Position numbers: made by a program. A stretch of DNA of 61,403 nucleotides, filler included, from Actinobacteria bacterium UBA7524 (GTDB lineage Bacteria > Actinomycetota > Coriobacteriia > Anaerosomatales > UBA912): NCBI GenBank assembly GCA_002478275.1. It is 3 parts of 3 records of this genome, joined end to end, with 100 filler letters (N's around TTAATTAATTAA, not from the genome) between each part and the next. Parts side by side here need not be neighbours in the genome. Positions count along the whole stretch, not along the records: positions 1 to 18,050 come from DLMY01000052.1; 2 more parts are not named here. One strand, given 5' to 3'. Of the stretch, positions 1-18,000 are shown in pieces; positions within the stretch are counted from its first letter, which is position 1, and every line of letters begins with the position of its first letter.

Positions 1-3000
1 GAGCCTCCGTCAAACCCGGGGCGTTTCAGTCACCAGGTATTTGGGCACCAAATCGGGCACCAAATCCGGGACGCGATCCGGCGTGAGTGCCTCTATCAAA
101 CCCGGGGCGCTTCATGAGAAGAAGAGAGCTATATGGTGCAGTTCAGGCTTGAACCTCGCCGCTGGGCAGCACCACTACCCGATCGTCACGATGGCATCGG
201 CACCGCATGCGGCTGCCACAAGCCCTGGCATCGTGCCTTCGGCGCCAACAACCAGCTTGTCGGTCAGTTCGAAGTGCTTGAGGCAGGTACTGCACGCCGT
301 GATGGTCGCCCCAGCGTCGGCAAGCGAGCGCAGCTCAGGAAGTGCGTCGGAGCCCTCGCAGGCGAGAAGCACGCCCTCGTTGACGAGCATGATCGCTGCC
401 GGCGTCTGCTCCTCACGCGCGAGTGAGACCAGGAAGCTGCGCATGAGGACGGCGCCGAGCTCGGCCTCCGCCTTCCCGAATGTGTTGCTGGTTATGAGGA
501 TGCGCTTTGCCATCGGATGCTCCTCTCAGACACAGGTCACTGCCCGCACATGATTGCGCCTATCGGCTATGCTTATTATCCATATCATCCATGTCTATTC
601 TCGTCCATCTACCGAGGGTGCGAACCCATGGGAGGGCACGCGTGAGCGAGGAATCGGTTCGTGAACTGGTCGAGTGGTTCGGCGAGGCAACGGCGTGGGC
701 ACGCGTGGCCGTCAAAGAGGCGTCAGAGGCAGGAACGCCGATCATCGGCCTGTACTGCGGCTATATCCCCTCCGAGATCATCAGGGCCTCCGGCGCGCTC
801 GCCGTTGGGCTGTGCGGCTCAACGCCAGCTGCTGTTGCCGATGGCGAAGTCACACTGCCCCGCAACTTCTGCCCACTTATCAAGTCGAGCTACGGGCTCG
901 CCATCACCGATACGTGCCCGTACTTCCACTTCGCCGACGCGCTCATCGGTGAGACCACCTGCGACGGCAAGAAGAAGGCGTTCGAGCTGTTCGGCGAGAT
1001 GAAGCCGACCCATGTGATGCAGCTGCCGTACGACGCCGACACCGAGCGTGCGTACGAGCAGTGGCGCGCCGAGATCGATCGAGTCGTCGGGTTCATCGAG
1101 GGCGTCACCGGAACGACCATCACCGCAGAATCGCTCTCTCGCGAGATCCACGACGCCAACGAAGTCCGCGCGCTGCTGGCGGATGTCGCCTCCACATTCG
1201 AGGCGGAGCATCCCCTCCTGTCATGGGAGGAGATGCTGGTCGTCCAGAACGCCGGTGGCTTCCTCACCGACCGGTCGACGTACAAAGAGAAGCTGAGGGA
1301 ACTGGCCGAGGCGCTCAGGGCAACGCCCCTTGTCACGGAGGCCGGGAACGGGCGGCCACGGGTGTTGCTCACGGGGACGCCGATAGCTCCGACGACCAAC
1401 AAGGTCATGCGACTCATCGACGAGGCGGGGGGCCGAGTCGTGTGTCACGACGCCTGCAGCGGCGTGAAGATGTACGACAGACTGGTTGACGAGACCGGCG
1501 ACCCGCTCGAGTCGCTGACGCGCTACACCCTGGGTCTGCCGTGCGCCTGCATGAGCCCAAATCCTGGACGGATCGACCTGCTCGCCAAGTCGGTCGAGCG
1601 CTACCGCATCCAGGGAGTCGTGGAGAACGTGTGGCAGGCATGCCACACGTTCAACGTGGAGTCCGTGGTGGTCGGCCGAGCATGCGAGAACGACCTCAAG
1701 ATCCCGCACCTCAAGCTCGAGACCGACTACGCGGAGTCCGATCTCGACCAGCTCAGGGTTCGAATCGAGGCGTTCGTCGAGATGCTTCGGTAAGGGCTCG
1801 CCTCAAGCCATACGCGCCGATCGGAACGACAGGCACACCGTCAACACAGACGGCGGCCCCGTGTATCGAACCGGGGTAGCGAGTGCCGGCCAAGGGGTCT
1901 TCATCGAGGCGGTAGACGACGACCTCGATGATCGCGCGCCACTCGGCGCCGGCGCAGACCTCCCGTACGAGCTGCTCGCTTGCGCGGCAGTCAGGGCAGG
2001 TACTGAAGAACTCGATGAGTACTTTGTCTCTCACCGGGATGGGCGGGAGGGCCCGCCCGAAGGCGGGCCCTGCTCGGCGAATGCTAGAGGGTGATGACCT
2101 GGTCGGGGGCGGCGGGGGCGAGCGCTGCGTAGAGATCCGGGAAGCAGCCGATGCTCGCGCCGGGGATCAGCTGGTCTGCGATGTGGCGCTCGTACGCGCA
2201 CTGATCGCACGCCATCAGCAGCATGCCGGTCTTCTCCTGAAGCGCCTGGAGCTTGCGGCCCATCTCGGTACCGTTGAGCAGGAAGAACGTGTTGTCGACG
2301 AAGAAGAACATGCCGACAACCTCCACTCCATGACGGCCCTCCTCCATCTGAGGGATGATCATGGTATCGAGGATCTTCTGGCTGGTGGTCGTGGCGAACA
2401 CGTACGCGATCTTCATCTTGTGGCCTCCTGTGACTCGTGCTGACGGGTTGAACCGCGGCGACTGGCCTGCGCCAGCGCCGCCCTCAGGACGGATACCGCG
2501 AGCTCGCAGCGATCCCTCCGGTGGGCCGGGACTTGTTCGAGATCGGAAGCGAGCATCTCGGGCGTGATGGCGAGGGCATCTCCGACCGCAAGACCTGTCG
2601 CCATTTCGGTCAGCCGGCTGGATGCGGCGACCATAGTCACGCAGGTGCTCGAGCGAAAGGCGACGGCGTCGATCGTGTCGCCCGAGACGCGCACGCTCAC
2701 ACGAACGACGACGTTGTCCTTCGTCTCCTCGGCCATCCCGTCACACGGCTCGAGATCGCCGACGTTGCGAGGCGAACGGAAATGGTCGATGAGCGTCGCG
2801 GAATACGGATGCATGGTGCACGGGCCCCTCAGCTCGCGGTCCAGCACCATACTATCGTATTGTCTGATGCTGGTCATCCAGGATGCTTATGGCTGAAAGT
2901 GATCTGGGCCTCAGCAGTCGCAGCGGGGCTCCTCACCACTGAGCCACTGCCTGATGATCGCGTGAGCACAGCCCACGCCGGGACTGAGCGATATCGCGCC

Positions 3001-15000: not shown

Positions 15001-18000
15001 CACGCGCTTGGCGCCCTTGTGTGCCACACCCTCGCCCGCAGCGACGCGCTGGTCGAGCTCGTCAGCGAGCGCGTTCATCATCTGGGTGAAACGCGGTACG
15101 TCATCGTAGAAGGCCACCTGCGTTGCGAGCAGGCGGTCCTTGCCGGAGATCGGCGCCGGGTCGGCTTTGCACGCCGCGGCGATGCGCTGTAGCGCGCGGC
15201 GCTTGTCGTTCACTTCCTTGATCGACGCGCGTAGGCTCTCGGCGGTGATGGTGTTGCCGGTGATCTCCTCGGCCTTCTTCACCAGCTCTCGGATCTCGCC
15301 CTTCCACATCTCCAGGTCCTGCGGACGCTTCATCTGCGGAAGCTCCATGACCCACGTGTTGTGGATCTCGCCGAGGAGCTCGTAGGCCTTCTTCTTGCCG
15401 TCGCACGTGGTCTCGCCGATGACGAGGTCCGCCGACTCGATGTATGGACACACCTTCGCAAGTTTGAAGCCCATGAAGCTCTTGATGAGCGCGCAGGTGT
15501 TGCGCGGCATGATCTGCTCGACCTGGTCGTAGGCGAACTCCGCGCCGGCGCACAGGCCCACGCACCAGCCACCCGCCGCGCGGATGATCTCCTCGGGCAC
15601 GTAGAGACAGAACGTGCCGAAGACCTTGCCGCCGGCCTTGCGGAAGTCGTCGAGCTCCTTGATGCGAAGACCGTGGACCTCGGAGAGCACGAAGTTGAGG
15701 TAGTCCATGCCCTTCGGGCGGTTCTCCTGCGTGAGGTAGGCATCGCCGAACAGCTGGCCCACCGCGCCGAGCAGCGCGTCGTGCGAAGGCAGGTCGAGGC
15801 CGAGCTCGGCCCACATCGGATGATAGTCGACAGACTGATCGCTCATTGGGAACCTCCTGCTACTCAGTTTCCTTATCGGGCTGTTCCGATATGCTTATAC
15901 CTTGTATCACAGTGGGGCCCCAGTTGGGAACGGGGAGATCCGGCCTACCGCTCTACGGGATAGCTGCCGAGCACCTTCACTTCGCGCAGATTCAGGCGCA
16001 GGCAGTCGAGTGCGAGGCGCATGCGGGGATCCTCAACGTGACCTTCGAGGTCCACGAAGAGCATTCAGTCACCGAGCGCTCTGAGGTCAGCGCTCACGCC
16101 TGGCTGGCAGGATGCCGACGAAACCTGATGCATGCAGCGCGGGCCGCTTGGACCCGATGCTGCAGGGGGCGACCAGATGGCCTACTTCTGCGCCGTCCAG
16201 GAATAGGAGGCGAAGGTAACGCCCACCATGGAGAAGTCCATGTTCCCGGTGATCACGATCTGGCTGCCGCTCCTGCTCGCCGTACCCTTGAACTGACACA
16301 GAACCGCTGTGCCATCCTCCTCCATACTCACGAAGAAACTGACAGCGCTGCCTGCGCATTGTGCTTCGCCGCCATAGCCGTTCACGTTCACTGTGCCTGT
16401 CCCGGCTTCGTTGAGTTGCAGTGTCACCGGCAGGCTCTTTGGAGACTCCACGTCTTCTTCCAGATGTTGCAGTGCTGCGCTCGCGCTATAGGTGCCAGCC
16501 ATTTCTTCGGCTGAAATGGGTCCCGTGGCAGGATCTTCTTGCGCTCCGGTCAGTGCGCCTTCCTCTTGGTCAGAAGGAGCAGTCTCCTGAGGCTGCGTGC
16601 TTTGGCTGTCACTCTCTTTCGCCGCGCGCTCCTTCGCCTCCCGCGCCTCCATCGCCGCGTTCATGTCTTCATCCGCAGCAGAGTTGATGCTCCACACAGG
16701 GTCGCAACCCATGAGGAGCATCGCCACCAGTATGGTGCAGAGAGCGACCTTAGTGCGGTCCGCGCGTGCTGCCTCCACGACATCCACCTCCATCGAGTAG
16801 CCACGGGTCGAGCGCCTCGCGCAGCTCCGCAAGCACCGGACCGATCGGGCCGGCCTCGACCTGCACGAGATCAAGGTCCTCCGAGTAGCGCCCCGGAAGA
16901 TCGAAGTGGAGCTTGTGCAGAGCGGTCCCGCCGCGGAAGGCGAGCGCCTCTCGCAAGGAAGGGCGGCCGAAGATCGCGGTGAGGGCTCTCGACAAGACCA
17001 GGTCCTGCTCGACCTGCTCGTCTTGGGGCCACGGCGCAGAAGCTCTCCAAGCCGTGATCTGGGCCCGGGGGATCACAGATCGATCTCCACATCCAGGTTC
17101 GGGATCACGCGCCAGGGACTGACGGCATCGGCGGCGCCCCGAGGCGCGTCGGAAGCGAGCGCAACGGTCCGATACCGTTTGGAGCCGAGGACTCGGAGTA
17201 ACGAGTCGGCGAGCCGGGGCTGACCCGCTCGGTCCAACAGGTAGCCGAGGCGCTGGATCGCGGGGGTCTTGCGCAGTTGCGCGACCGCGCCGAGAGCTTC
17301 GGGTTCGAGGCGCTCAGCGAGCTCGAGCAGCACCGTGGCGACATTGCTCCAGCCACCGCAGGCCTCCGAGTAGCGCACGAGATCGAACGCCGTCGATTCA
17401 GGCGTGGACACGAGCATGGTGCCGGTCTCCGTCTGAACCCGGGTGGCGGGAGTCTCCCCGACCTGACGACTCATGTGGAAGGTGATGCGCGCGCGTCCTG
17501 CCACGCCCCCGCGGGTGGGACGGTCGGTGACGACCTGAAACGTCATCGGCTGCTGATGAGAAGCGCCGTGGATGGCTGCTGCGGATAGCAATCCCACGTA
17601 GTAGGGCTGGCCGAGGAAGCCCATCAGGTCGTCGATGAACCACGAGGGCGGCGGAGAGCCAGCCGTGCGGTACTCGGTGGGCACGATCACGTAGAAGCCG
17701 CGACGCGGCGCCACGATGCGACCACGCTTCTTGAGCCGGCGAAGGGCGTTGTCGACCGCTATCTCAGACGTCGGAAGTGCGGCTCGCGCATCCGCGTGAG
17801 AGAACGTGTAGATCCCCGTTGCCTGAAGCTGTTCGACGAACGCCGAGACGTCTTCAGGGGCTGTCACGTCTTGAATCGCCATTTCACTTTCATAAGATAG
17901 CGCTCAACGCTGCTTTACGCAAGTAGATTGGCGTCTCGGAAGGAAGTTGGGAGCGACGCGACGCCAATGGAATCGGGCGACGAATCGGGCGACAAATCAG

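Follow-up and report, generated by a model that had tools for sequence, protein, structure and literature searches.

In an actinobacterial metagenome-assembled genome (MAG; G000, 83% complete), the genes hgcA and hgcB are embedded in a complete SAO locus, between saoL and nifU-saoD, and this linkage is the new part of what is described here: a literature search found no paper describing it, and, as far as the consulted part of the SAO preprint goes, the two systems had not been seen physically linked before (the supplementary tables of that preprint might list neighbours). Our overall reading, which we hold to be rather probable, is that of a genuine composite operon, in which a SAO locus of a type native to the order took up a four-gene block, works in the way proposed below and has moved recently. 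The window (the whole stretch analysed, 61,403 nucleotides) is made up of three glued contigs, C41, C42 and C43. The SAO/hgcAB finding of the preliminary description lies on C41 (1-18050) alone; the rest of the window consists of C42 and C43.

C41 carries 17 closely packed genes on one strand (-), followed by a convergent second double-cubane reductase, in the order DCC-activase-saoT-E-C-X-B-P-A-L-[activase::HGD fusion, HGD-beta]-hgcA-hgcB-nifU-saoD-saoT2 and then DCC. Gene calls were graded as NCBIfam bits relative to the cut-off (given below as bits/cut-off), and every one of the nine Sao families exceeded its cut-off in the profile search, as did HgcA, HgcB and the two DCCs, which bears out the gene content, the order and the completeness of the SAO locus previously claimed. 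The cluster is headed by DCC_L, a double-cubane-cluster reductase (14566..15846, -; NF040772 493/350), and by its ATP-dependent activase of the BcrAD/HgdC type (13815..14594, -; TIGR00241 207/125). Then come the thioredoxin-like saoT, in a CPHC form without Sec (13539..13802, -; NF040730 115/65), the ArsP/SO_0444-type efflux permease saoE (12447..13538, -; NF040736 461/325) and the lipoprotein saoC (11992..12564, -; NF040734 140/80), which has a LAGC lipobox, matches its model up to the last position and terminates in ...EDCC, that is, in a Cys-Cys-COOH end followed by a TGA stop. Two substrate-binding proteins, saoX (10754..11902, -; NF040735 477/300) and saoB (9932..10744, -; NF040727 269/140; KDCCTS, the Cys-Cys form), precede the ABC permease saoP (9162..9986, -; NF040733 373/295), whose Cys in ...SVICAEF... 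presumably occupies the gating position, and the ABC ATPase saoA (8284..9177, -; NF040729 413/360). The MerB-like lyase saoL (213 aa with Sec; 7646..8287, -; NF040728 158/140) is separated by 53 nt from the block formed by an activase::HGD/BCR-like Fe-S subunit fusion (688 aa; 5526..7592, -; TIGR00241 233/125 over residues 23-279), an overlapping gene for an HGD-beta-like partner subunit (405 aa; 4346..5563, -; 42 bits to the DCC model) and, after another 53 nt, the corrinoid methyltransferase hgcA (3198..4292, -; NF040863 404.6/275) and, 11 nt further, the 2x[4Fe-4S] ferredoxin hgcB (2911..3186, -; NF040864 125.5/99). The NifU/IscU-like scaffold gene (2413..2877, -; TIGR03419 70 bits, under cut-off) starts 33 nt beyond hgcB and overlaps the DsrE-like saoD (2084..2416, -; NF040732 180/169) by 4 nt; saoT2, a second SaoT-like thioredoxin with CPDC (1753..2034, -; NF040730 24.9 bits, under cut-off), and the convergent DCC_R (507..1793, +; NF040772 430/350) complete the locus. 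Compared with the SAO locus as described in the consulted part of Haft and Gwadz (2022, 10.1101/2022.07.06.499078), C41 shares the nine families, the saoTECXBPAL...D order, the Cys-Sec SaoL and the adjacent double-cubane reductases and activase (DCC lay within 5 kb at 21 of their 52 SAO loci), but adds hgcAB and the activase::HGD pair between saoL and saoD, plus a NifU-like gene and the SaoT-like saoT2, in an actinobacterial host and with Sec in SaoL only.

Could such a linkage have been produced by a chimeric assembly? MAG contigs are built from short reads and repeats lie at the contig ends. Nonetheless, the same gene order is found in a second assembly, on contig C106 (26.7 kb) of the MAG G004, to which C41:561-18050 aligns over 17,493 bp at 99.65% identity with 54 mismatches and 5 gap openings (blastn), a longer shared stretch than the 13.7 kb first reported. 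Moreover, contigs of four further studies bridge the hgcB/hgcA, hgcA/HGD-beta, fusion/saoL and saoD/nifU junctions with 0-7 mismatches and even depth. In run X8, one contig of 5,091 bp spans 50-5140 (7 mismatches) and another of 3,411 bp spans 7132-10542, while in run X7 three contigs span 2433-4120, 4109-5599 and 5649-7752 with 0 mismatches; coverage extends over 30/30 depth bins in every one of 4 runs, from 4 studies. The 6-kb core is held by 19 public runs of 14 studies (6 rows being possible sources), so that the arrangement is no longer seen only in the two MAG contigs, and the segment is nearly unchanged across many anoxic habitats. A chimera is thus left with next to no probability, and the linkage is not an assembly artefact.

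The embedding is also real in terms of SAO gene order, beyond mere adjacency. In another genome of the order, G044, the SAO locus runs saoL-nifU-saoD-DCC_R, with 19 nt between saoL and nifU, a NifU-like gene 52% identical to that of C41 standing between saoL and saoD, and a saoD 92.7% identical; therefore, the four-gene block of C41 sits within a SAO gene order. This supports the earlier placement of hgcAB between saoL and nifU-saoD, now extended to independent assemblies. SaoL, formerly counted in 2 of 60 other genomes of the order, occurs in 7 of the 145 besides G000 (146 in the set). In the five other SAO loci of the order that are whole beyond saoL, this gene leads straight to DCC_R (four) or to nifU-saoD-DCC_R (one), none of them with hgcAB, and a sixth locus ends inside saoL; hgcA lies on different contigs or more than 100 kb off in these genomes. 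DCC_L is 75-93% identical to the DCC heading the 6 other loci, and DCC_R 57-60% to the DCC closing them. Conversely, no SAO locus lies near other hgcAB in 38 loci (31 with flanks of +-1.5 kb and 8 with about +-9 kb, the sets sharing some genomes). Since hgcA is common in the order (90/146 genomes), co-occurrence with SAO at the genome level is expected by chance.

The absence of hgcAB from the five loci and of SAO genes from the other hgcAB loci also speaks for a fortuitous juxtaposition, in which hgcAB and the HGD pair landed in a SAO locus while the island was being put together and are carried uncoupled, as in an island of 'metal genes'. The arrangement is a single lineage of one island, with copies at least about 99% identical, and the block is composite: HgcA is closest to sequences of the family f23 (59-65%), and the HGD pair to metagenome loci without hgcAB (57-60%). 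In those closest metagenome relatives HGD-beta invariably adjoins the fusion; hgcAB stands beside relatives of the fused reductase in 0/80 metagenome loci, and no full-length relative of it turned up in the order's 144 further genomes. Against such a chance landing, the insertion is co-oriented, between two SAO genes and with gaps of 11-53 nt, no IS remnants or terminator-like sites are found within the block (a weak test as to terminators; of the 6 sites found, 0 are on '-', the coding strand of the cluster), and the arrangement is unaltered in samples of many studies. Furthermore, there exists a second, independent hgcAB-DCC/activase neighbourhood: in the family f22, hgcA-hgcB are followed by a convergent activase and an orthologue of the SAO-associated DCC_L (67-78% identical), in 4/4 loci fetched with long flanks and in 7 of the best 30 hgcA loci. 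On the other side, a comparison of place tables puts hgcA no more than 5 kb from a DCC in only 7 of the about 46 genomes with both genes, and these represent two lineages. We regard uncoupled carriage as possible but less probable, and prefer the composite operon.

The hgcAB pair itself shows the features known from Parks et al. (2013) and McDaniel et al. (2020): the cap helix NVWCAAGK in HgcA, two CX2CX2CX3C motifs in HgcB and a C-terminal Cys pair, although this terminus is CDC, not CC, before a true TGA stop (CDC or CGC, then TAG, in relatives). The C-terminal half of HgcA is hydrophobic, and its N-terminal MSECCGPPQSCCCD is of the Cys-Cys type; both this terminus on the two HgcA copies and the reality of the second hgcAB pair, on C47, were confirmed. 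Usual hgcAB neighbourhoods have little in common beyond an upstream regulator, whereas the C41 pair is part of a cluster of 17 genes, and repeats and transposase genes flank the segment that carries it. In the consulted part of McDaniel et al. (2020, PMC7438021), hgcA is reported as not found on viral contigs in NCBI.

SaoL was proposed to be a Cys-Sec selenoprotein, which proves correct yet already published (Sec in 44/45 SaoL in the consulted part of Haft and Gwadz, 10.1101/2022.07.06.499078), with 213 aa from the ATG at 8287 instead of 216. The in-frame TGA (7781-7783; motif GSC-U-NV) is followed by a continued reading frame, and read-through extends the match to the MerB model from positions 55-121 to 55-173 of 181. 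That the UGA is a true stop, leaving a truncated protein or a dead gene, would fit the failure to find selA, selB or tRNA-Sec in G000 (83% complete) and the ordinary energy against shuffles (z = 0.38) of the SECIS-like bacterial hairpin (7749..7769, -; 7-bp stem, UGUAC loop, beginning 11 nt past the UGA). However, besides the homology running on, conservation covers the UGA and about 45 codons beyond it in 6/6 orthologues read (5 being distinct loci of the order), with 42/42 cells of the hairpin paired and 2/7 pairs changed on both sides, i.e., compensatory. G000 also has, at the end of C37, the N-terminal part of a Sec-type selD with a UGA in frame, selA and Sec-type selD are found in G004, G044, G120 and G144, with full machinery in G004, and Sec is the published rule; a true stop is accordingly most improbable. 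Aligned to MerB 1S6L, the catalytic residues of SaoL, its Cys, Asp and Cys-Sec, fall on C96, D99 and C159-C160, so Sec replaces Cys160. SaoL keeps the fold family of the organomercurial lyase (PDB 1S6L, 5C17), but its score is 29-56 bits against solved chains and, for the MerB model with its cut-off of 200, 57 bits, and its locus, unlike MerB systems, has no merA, merR or merT. SaoB, SaoC, SaoP and SaoT are Cys forms.

As regards mobility, identity breaks sharply at C41:560/561, from 99.65% inside to 74.6% outside (C41:179-514), and C42 matches G004 in patches of about 70-73% over 11 kb. The segment (561..18050), which includes an AbiEi-type antitoxin/regulator gene (17073..17882, -; PF09407 129.5 bits), thus appears to have recently moved or recombined between genomes about 25-30% apart in neighbouring and housekeeping DNA, and recent lateral exchange is supported. 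The claim of a mobile island holds in its near-identity, sharp break and flanking repeats and transposases; the shared segment contains no integrase, transposase or relaxase, and its host MAG is uncertain. Both ends of C41 (17971..18050 and 27-107) fall in a multi-copy repeat (blastn to C34, C54, C29 and C22 of G000, and three copies in C106), with depth of 20-120 against 5-10 inside, and therefore C41 is unanchored to the G000 chromosome. The contig could hence come from neither MAG or from one only; it might, e.g., be a plasmid or integrative element or stem from a third organism, and the transfer between divergent MAGs would then be a binning artefact. SaoL and DCC are absent from the 4 other genomes of G000's family, hgcA and SaoL each occur in 1/8 genomes of G004's genus (G004 itself), and C106 (island and flank) is unlike G004's large contigs by tetranucleotides (distance 0.016 versus their own maximum of 0.0147; LDA p(G000-like) = 0.999). 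Yet the island's tetranucleotide distance to G000 (0.0113) equals the median for chunks of G000 itself, copies of that repeat family turn up on six further G000 contigs, among them the 60-kb C34, in its interior, and the break at 560/561 joins two different backgrounds whatever the bins. Mis-assignment is possible but rather unlikely, and both MAGs are putative hosts.

How might the composite operon work? A SAO locus native to the actinobacterial order would have acquired, between saoL and nifU-saoD, an ATP-driven activase::HGD/HGD-beta reductase pair together with hgcA-hgcB, presumably co-transcribed with it. The extracytoplasmic thiol proteins SaoC, SaoB and SaoX and the SaoPA importer would be the uptake route for an organometallic or soft-metal species, SaoL with its Sec would break carbon-metal bonds, HgcAB would move a methyl group from its corrinoid onto the metal, and SaoE would expel the product, with the thioredoxin-like, DsrE-like and IscU-like proteins handing metal from thiol to thiol. 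Together with both DCCs and the HGD pair, their Fe-S partners, the ATP-dependent activases would give very low-potential electrons, possibly including those for reaching Co(I) in HgcA. The pair shares its activase domain and HGD-D-type Fe-S subunits with 2-hydroxyacyl-CoA dehydratase, benzoyl-CoA reductase and DCCP enzymes with ASKHA activases, a makeup that by analogy would permit ATP-coupled low-potential electron transfer; unlike in DCCP enzymes, activase and one subunit form a single fused protein, the DCC model is matched under cut-off (219 bits against 350 at residues 319-672 of the fusion; 42 for HGD-beta), and the seven-Cys pattern is partial (about 5/7 columns in the fusion, about 4 in HGD-beta). 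In the consulted part of Haft and Gwadz (10.1101/2022.07.06.499078), SAO and HgcAB are linked through CU/CC motifs only; the locus on C41 joins physically two systems previously connected just by sequence motifs.

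The SAO genes and one of the two hgcAB pairs of Actinobacteria bacterium UBA7524 (G000; 1.81 Mb in 60 contigs, 83% complete, 0.6% contamination) lie together on contig C41 (window 1-18050) and, since the finding is confined to that contig, the other two parts, C42 (18151-34186) and C43 (34287-61403), are uninformative on its genomic context. NCBIfam scans of the long ORFs of C41 (scores as bits/cut-off) recovered the gene list of the preliminary description, which runs on the minus strand from a double-cubane reductase at the cluster head (DCC_L, 493/350) through an activase (207/125), SaoT (115/65), SaoE (461/325), SaoC (140/80), SaoX (477/300), SaoB (269/140), SaoP (373/295), SaoA (413/360), SaoL (158/140), a 688-aa activase::HGD fusion (activase domain 233/125; HGD/DCC-like domain 219 bits, under 350), a 405-aa HGD-like partner (HGD-beta, 42 bits), HgcA (404.6/275), HgcB (125.5/99), a NifU/IscU-like protein (70 bits, below its cut-off) and SaoD (180/169) to a second SaoT-like thioredoxin with a CPDC motif (25 bits), and is closed by a convergent second DCC on the plus strand (DCC_R, 430/350). 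All nine SAO families (T, E, C, X, B, P, A, L and D) are therefore over their equivalog cut-offs in one neighbourhood, flanked by two over-cut-off DCCs and one activase. The inserted fusion and its partner score under the double-cubane cut-off (219 and 42 bits against the 350 of NF040772) and, of the seven-Cys motif columns of DCCs, keep about five and about four, respectively. An ORF matching purD at window 18103-18873 (model positions 1-196 of 425) crosses the N spacer between C41 and C42 and is, for that reason, not a real truncated gene.

The spacing of these genes is short: 53 nt separate saoL from the fusion, which overlaps its partner in sequence coordinates, and 53 nt separate the partner from hgcA, 11 nt hgcA from hgcB and 33 nt hgcB from nifU, the latter overlapping saoD by 4 nt. 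A crude scan found no terminator on the coding strand of the cluster, and a scan for sigma-70-type promoters gave zero sites, a result that is uninformative for a GC-rich lineage. The Rfam scan of C41 returned no match at E <= 0.1, and hence neither a riboswitch nor a modelled SECIS. A stretch of 230 bp ahead of the first DCC gene (window 15846-16077) is 81-87% identical in DNA to its counterparts in two other genomes of the order (G043 and G036), above the 65-72% of the sao genes in the same comparison; it may represent a conserved leader or a region with a regulatory function.

The physical linkage of hgcAB to SAO is confirmed by independent assemblies. A SaoL scan of one genome per species (a single-protein query, which reaches close relatives only) returned as sole close locus the 26.7-kb contig C106 of a second MAG, G004 ('Actinomycetes bacterium'). 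The near-identity to a second MAG that had been reported over 13.7 kb holds, but its extent was underestimated, as C41:561-18050 matches C106 at 99.65% identity over 17,493 bp. Nor is the arrangement restricted to this contig and that second locus (L021), where alone it had been seen: a word index placed the 6-kb core from nifU to saoL in 19 public runs of 14 studies (six rows being possible source samples), all of them non-RNA, from hydrocarbon, groundwater, digester, soil, sludge, biofilm, marine, aquatic and wastewater habitats. Contigs of four of these runs, from four studies, cover 30 of 30 bins of C41 in each run; one of 5,091 bp, with 7 mismatches, reaches from DCC_R to HGD-beta, a second runs through the fusion, saoL, saoA, saoP and saoB, and contigs with zero mismatches join hgcB to hgcA, hgcA to HGD-beta and the fusion to saoL. 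Depth is even inside C41, at about 5-10, and rises to 20-120 at both ends. The same locus in a second MAG, together with bridging contigs at even depth, excludes an assembly chimera.

How unusual is this arrangement? Among 146 species genomes of the order, including G000, SaoL is found in 8 and HgcA in 90, which replaces the earlier figure of SaoL in 2 of 60 other genomes, and an even phylum-wide sample of 400 other genomes contained no SaoL. Mapping the C41 proteins onto the six non-island SAO loci of the order showed the same DCC_L-activase-saoTECXBPAL order in all of them. Downstream of saoL, DCC_R follows directly in four, nifU-saoD-DCC_R follows in G044, and the remaining one ends inside saoL at a contig end; hgcAB is absent from all six, with this last locus counted as far as it goes. 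Five of the six genomes carry hgcA at another place, no more often than chance predicts when 62% of the order has the gene. What the island has in addition is a block of about 4.7 kb with the fusion, HGD-beta, hgcA and hgcB, and the saoL-nifU-saoD-DCC_R order of G044 places these four genes inside the SAO gene order and not beside it. In the opposite direction, the statement that other hgcA loci lack Sao genes stands, as no SAO locus was found at the 30 best-scoring hgcA loci and the second hgcAB locus of G000 (flanks of ±1.5 kb) or at eight hgcAB loci with flanks of about 9 kb. As a side observation, saoD (window 2084-2416) is 92.7% identical in protein and 84.5% in DNA to that of G044, whereas the neighbouring nifU and saoL are only 52-54% identical to their G044 counterparts, so that either saoD is under strong constraint or the locus is a mosaic.

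The block itself has its relatives elsewhere. Among the 146 genomes of the order, only the two island holders have the fusion at full length, and neither hgcA nor hgcB lies beside any of the best 80 of the fusion's 579 metagenome relatives. The island HgcA is nearest to sequences of family f23 (59-65% identity), and is 57% identical to the other copy of G000 and 46-55% to those of the family of G004. The cluster thus draws on three sources or more, and every known copy of it is of a single, nearly clonal form. Separately, the closest relatives of the fusion (57-60%; loci L079, L081 and L082, on metagenome contigs) keep one or two HGD-beta genes beside it, an arrangement that makes up an uncharacterised module of its own; unrelated ABC transporter genes of the NitT/TauT type lie near it in two of the three (L081 and L082).

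The reading of SaoL as a Cys-Sec selenoprotein, proposed from a split gene call, is sustained by several observations. When the TGA of saoL is read as Sec (GSC-U-NV), the frame stays open for 45 further codons, to a TAG, and the match to the MerB model grows from positions 55-121 to 55-173 of 181. Cys96, Asp99 and Cys159 are catalytic in MerB and, in an alignment to the solved structure 1S6L, SaoL keeps the equivalents of all three, with Sec on Cys160; its scores lie under the cut-offs of the MerB HMMs (56.7 bits vs 200 for NF033555, and 53.8 vs 193). A 7-bp hairpin with a UGUAC loop begins 11 nt past the UGA, a distance and a loop that we presume to be those of the bacterial SECIS pattern. 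The energy of this hairpin is unremarkable by itself, but six SaoL genes of the order, all distinct, keep the UGA, the hairpin is paired in 42 of 42 pair cells, two pairs are changed on both sides, and only 2 of 500 shuffles reached the observed score; the paired changes go with amino-acid changes in both arms (FF..KK to SF..EE and AF..KA). This property of SaoL is not new, since the Haft and Gwadz preprint (10.1101/2022.07.06.499078) had described SaoL as a CU selenoprotein in 44 of 45 cases, and a 2026 review counts SaoL and HgcA among the CU selenoproteins and SAO among the selenoprotein operons.

Other proteins of the locus carry Cys forms, namely SaoB (KDCCTS), SaoC (ending in EDCC-stop, i.e., CC-COOH), SaoT (CPHC) and SaoP (VICAEF), the last with its Cys at the putative gate position. 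Within G000 (83% complete), the sole piece of Sec machinery found is an N-terminal selD fragment with an in-frame UGA (SKAGUAAK; C37:55908-56099, locus L012) at the end of a 56-kb contig, selA, selB and tRNA-Sec not being found; the best selB candidates proved to be EF-Tu (on C9 and at the end of C59) or further GTPases. The second island holder has selA (614 bits) and a Sec-type selD, and both are also present in G044, G120 and the same-family genome G144, and not in G146.

Regarding the methylation genes, the island HgcA begins with MSECCGPPQSCCCD, shows five hydrophobic stretches, consistent with a membrane domain, as read from the sequence, and has the cap helix NVWCAAGK, matching what we take to be the consensus, N(V/I)WCA(A/G)GK. 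HgcB has the 4Fe-4S motifs CNGCALCTQVCP and CMECGACAKNCA and its tail is CDC in place of CC, like that of its closest relatives. The TGA that follows hgcB was also considered as a Sec codon, which would yield a C-U-G-P motif like that of HgcA, but this was rejected, the closest relatives ending in CDC or CGC followed by TAG. The second hgcAB of G000, on contig C47, is real and stands among ordinary genes, with a PAS protein, an SDR, an S-layer-like protein, an MFS transporter with a TetR regulator and a heliorhodopsin as neighbours, and both HgcA copies are Cys-Cys forms, as previously described. The heliorhodopsin gene of that locus (L013, 15377-16327) scores 230 bits against a cut-off of 100. 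Sec-form HgcA, with one in-frame TGA in the N-terminal extension, was seen in seven genes of the order (G035, G084, G085, G092, G094, G096 and G104). At four of the 30 best hgcA loci (L040, L041, L054 and L061) an ArsP/SO_0444-type permease, 28-31% identical to SaoE, lies directly 3' of hgcB.

The mobility attributed to the island is upheld in part. G000 and G004 come from separate families within the order, and 11 kb of C42 show only patches of 70-73% identity to G004. At C41:560/561 the identity falls from 99.65% to 74.6% (C41:179-514 against C106:18592-18927), and this drop marks a recombination boundary between two backgrounds, whatever the bins. A repeat family of 175-310 bp stands at both ends of C41 (window 27-107 and 17971-18050), on six other contigs of G000 (C34:23875-24038 and 60470-60671, C55, C7, C54, C29 and C22) and, in three copies, on C106 (876-1049, 19739-20048, and 22258-22393 with 23389-23563), one of them interrupted by an rve-type IS. 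Its copies, often at contig ends, are 85-98% identical between the two genomes, which elsewhere diverge by about 30%: is the repeat a MITE-like element, or a target of ISs? The flanks of C106 carry, besides direct repeat copies and the rve-type transposase, an IS256-family transposase at the contig end. The shared segment 561-18050 itself contains an AbiEi gene and no integrase, transposase or relaxase. Joints in the runs that skip about 17.9 kb (63 to 18029 in run X8, 66 to 18016 in run X7) were considered as an empty site or a circle; with 22-26 letters on the short side, within the repeat, they are no evidence of either.

The composition of the segment resembles that of G000: its tetranucleotide distance to G000 (0.0113) equals the median of G000's own, its distance to G004 (0.0162) exceeds the maximum of ten 20-kb samples of G004 (0.0147), and a discriminant with 100% cross-validated accuracy classed the island as G000-like, and the flank on C106 too. 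The rest of the family of G000 lacks SaoL and DCC (zero of four genomes each), and in the genus of G004 both hgcA and SaoL occur in one of eight genomes, G004 alone. Taken together, the near-identity, the sharp break and the flanking repeats and transposases make a recent lateral exchange of the segment a well-supported reading.

Proximity of hgcAB to double-cubane reductases also occurs apart from SAO. Downstream of hgcA-hgcB in family f22 come a convergent activase and a DCC, the latter 67-78% identical to that at the head of the SAO loci, with no SAO genes present; this order is found in all four long-flank loci (L159-L162, i.e., G092:C30, G100:C2, G106:C4 and G104:C25) and in seven of the 30 best hgcA loci (L043, L045, L051, L056, L060, L065 and L068). 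According to a comparison of place tables, of the roughly 46 genomes that have both hgcA and a DCC, 7 have the two no more than 5 kb apart: five from f22 and the two island holders, which makes two lineages. The Haft and Gwadz preprint associates DCC with SAO in 21 of 52 loci (10.1101/2022.07.06.499078), and together with the f22 loci this association makes DCC plus activase the neighbour that both systems share, though on thin evidence, since genomes that are related do not count independently.

The physical facts of the arrangement are practically certain: hgcAB within SAO is real and geographically widespread, in a single lineage, with only the SaoL part already known. The literature searched, preprint supplements aside, holds no description of it. 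What was accessible of McDaniel et al. 2020 (PMC7438021) places hgcA-positive Actinobacteria in the Coriobacteriia order OPB41, which we guess to be the order studied here, and in other poorly known lineages, and reports that the viral contigs of NCBI yielded nothing resembling hgcA.

One co-directional cluster combines HgcAB with an ABC importer, an ArsP-type permease, a MerB-type lyase whose catalytic triad is intact, three ATP-dependent low-potential reductase systems, and extracytoplasmic binders that as a set are rich in thiols and contain a selenol. Such a cluster could handle a soft metal as an organometallic species, with carbon-metal bonds made by HgcAB and cleaved by SaoL, and activase-driven Fe-S proteins would provide reducing power, possibly for the Co(II)-to-Co(I) activation of HgcA. 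This proposal fits the hypothesis, in the seen part of the preprint (10.1101/2022.07.06.499078), that SAO forms organometallic bonds as well as breaking them. The main rival is a juxtaposition of hgcAB and SAO with no functional connection. Between the two, the chances that HgcAB is functionally coupled with the Sao proteins are roughly balanced. Quite improbable, in our judgement, is the bolder version in which HgcAB would be a module of an SAO-type organometallic metabolism and not a stand-alone corrinoid accident, thiol/selenol-guided import, methylation by HgcAB, Sec-dependent demethylation by SaoL and ArsP-type export would form a closed cycle, the activases and DCC/HGD partners beside hgcAB, here and in f22, would be the long-missing returners of the HgcA cobalt to Co(I), and the island would spread methylation.

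Two standing questions, what HgcAB does in the cell and what SAO is for, meet here in one probable natural operon which, with HgcAB, SAO, a MerB-like selenoenzyme and ATP-driven reductases, offers a clonable test bed: are the making and breaking of carbon-metal bonds coupled, on which substrate does the system really act, and what is the reductant of the HgcA corrinoid? Moreover, the segment is a rare case of hgcAB with signs of very recent lateral exchange, nearly constant across the samples of many studies, and it bears on the spread of methylation capacity and on taxon assignment in hgcA-based surveys. Were the bolder version true, the island would be a vehicle of methylation capacity among anaerobic Actinobacteria of groundwater, sludge, soil and hydrocarbon sites.
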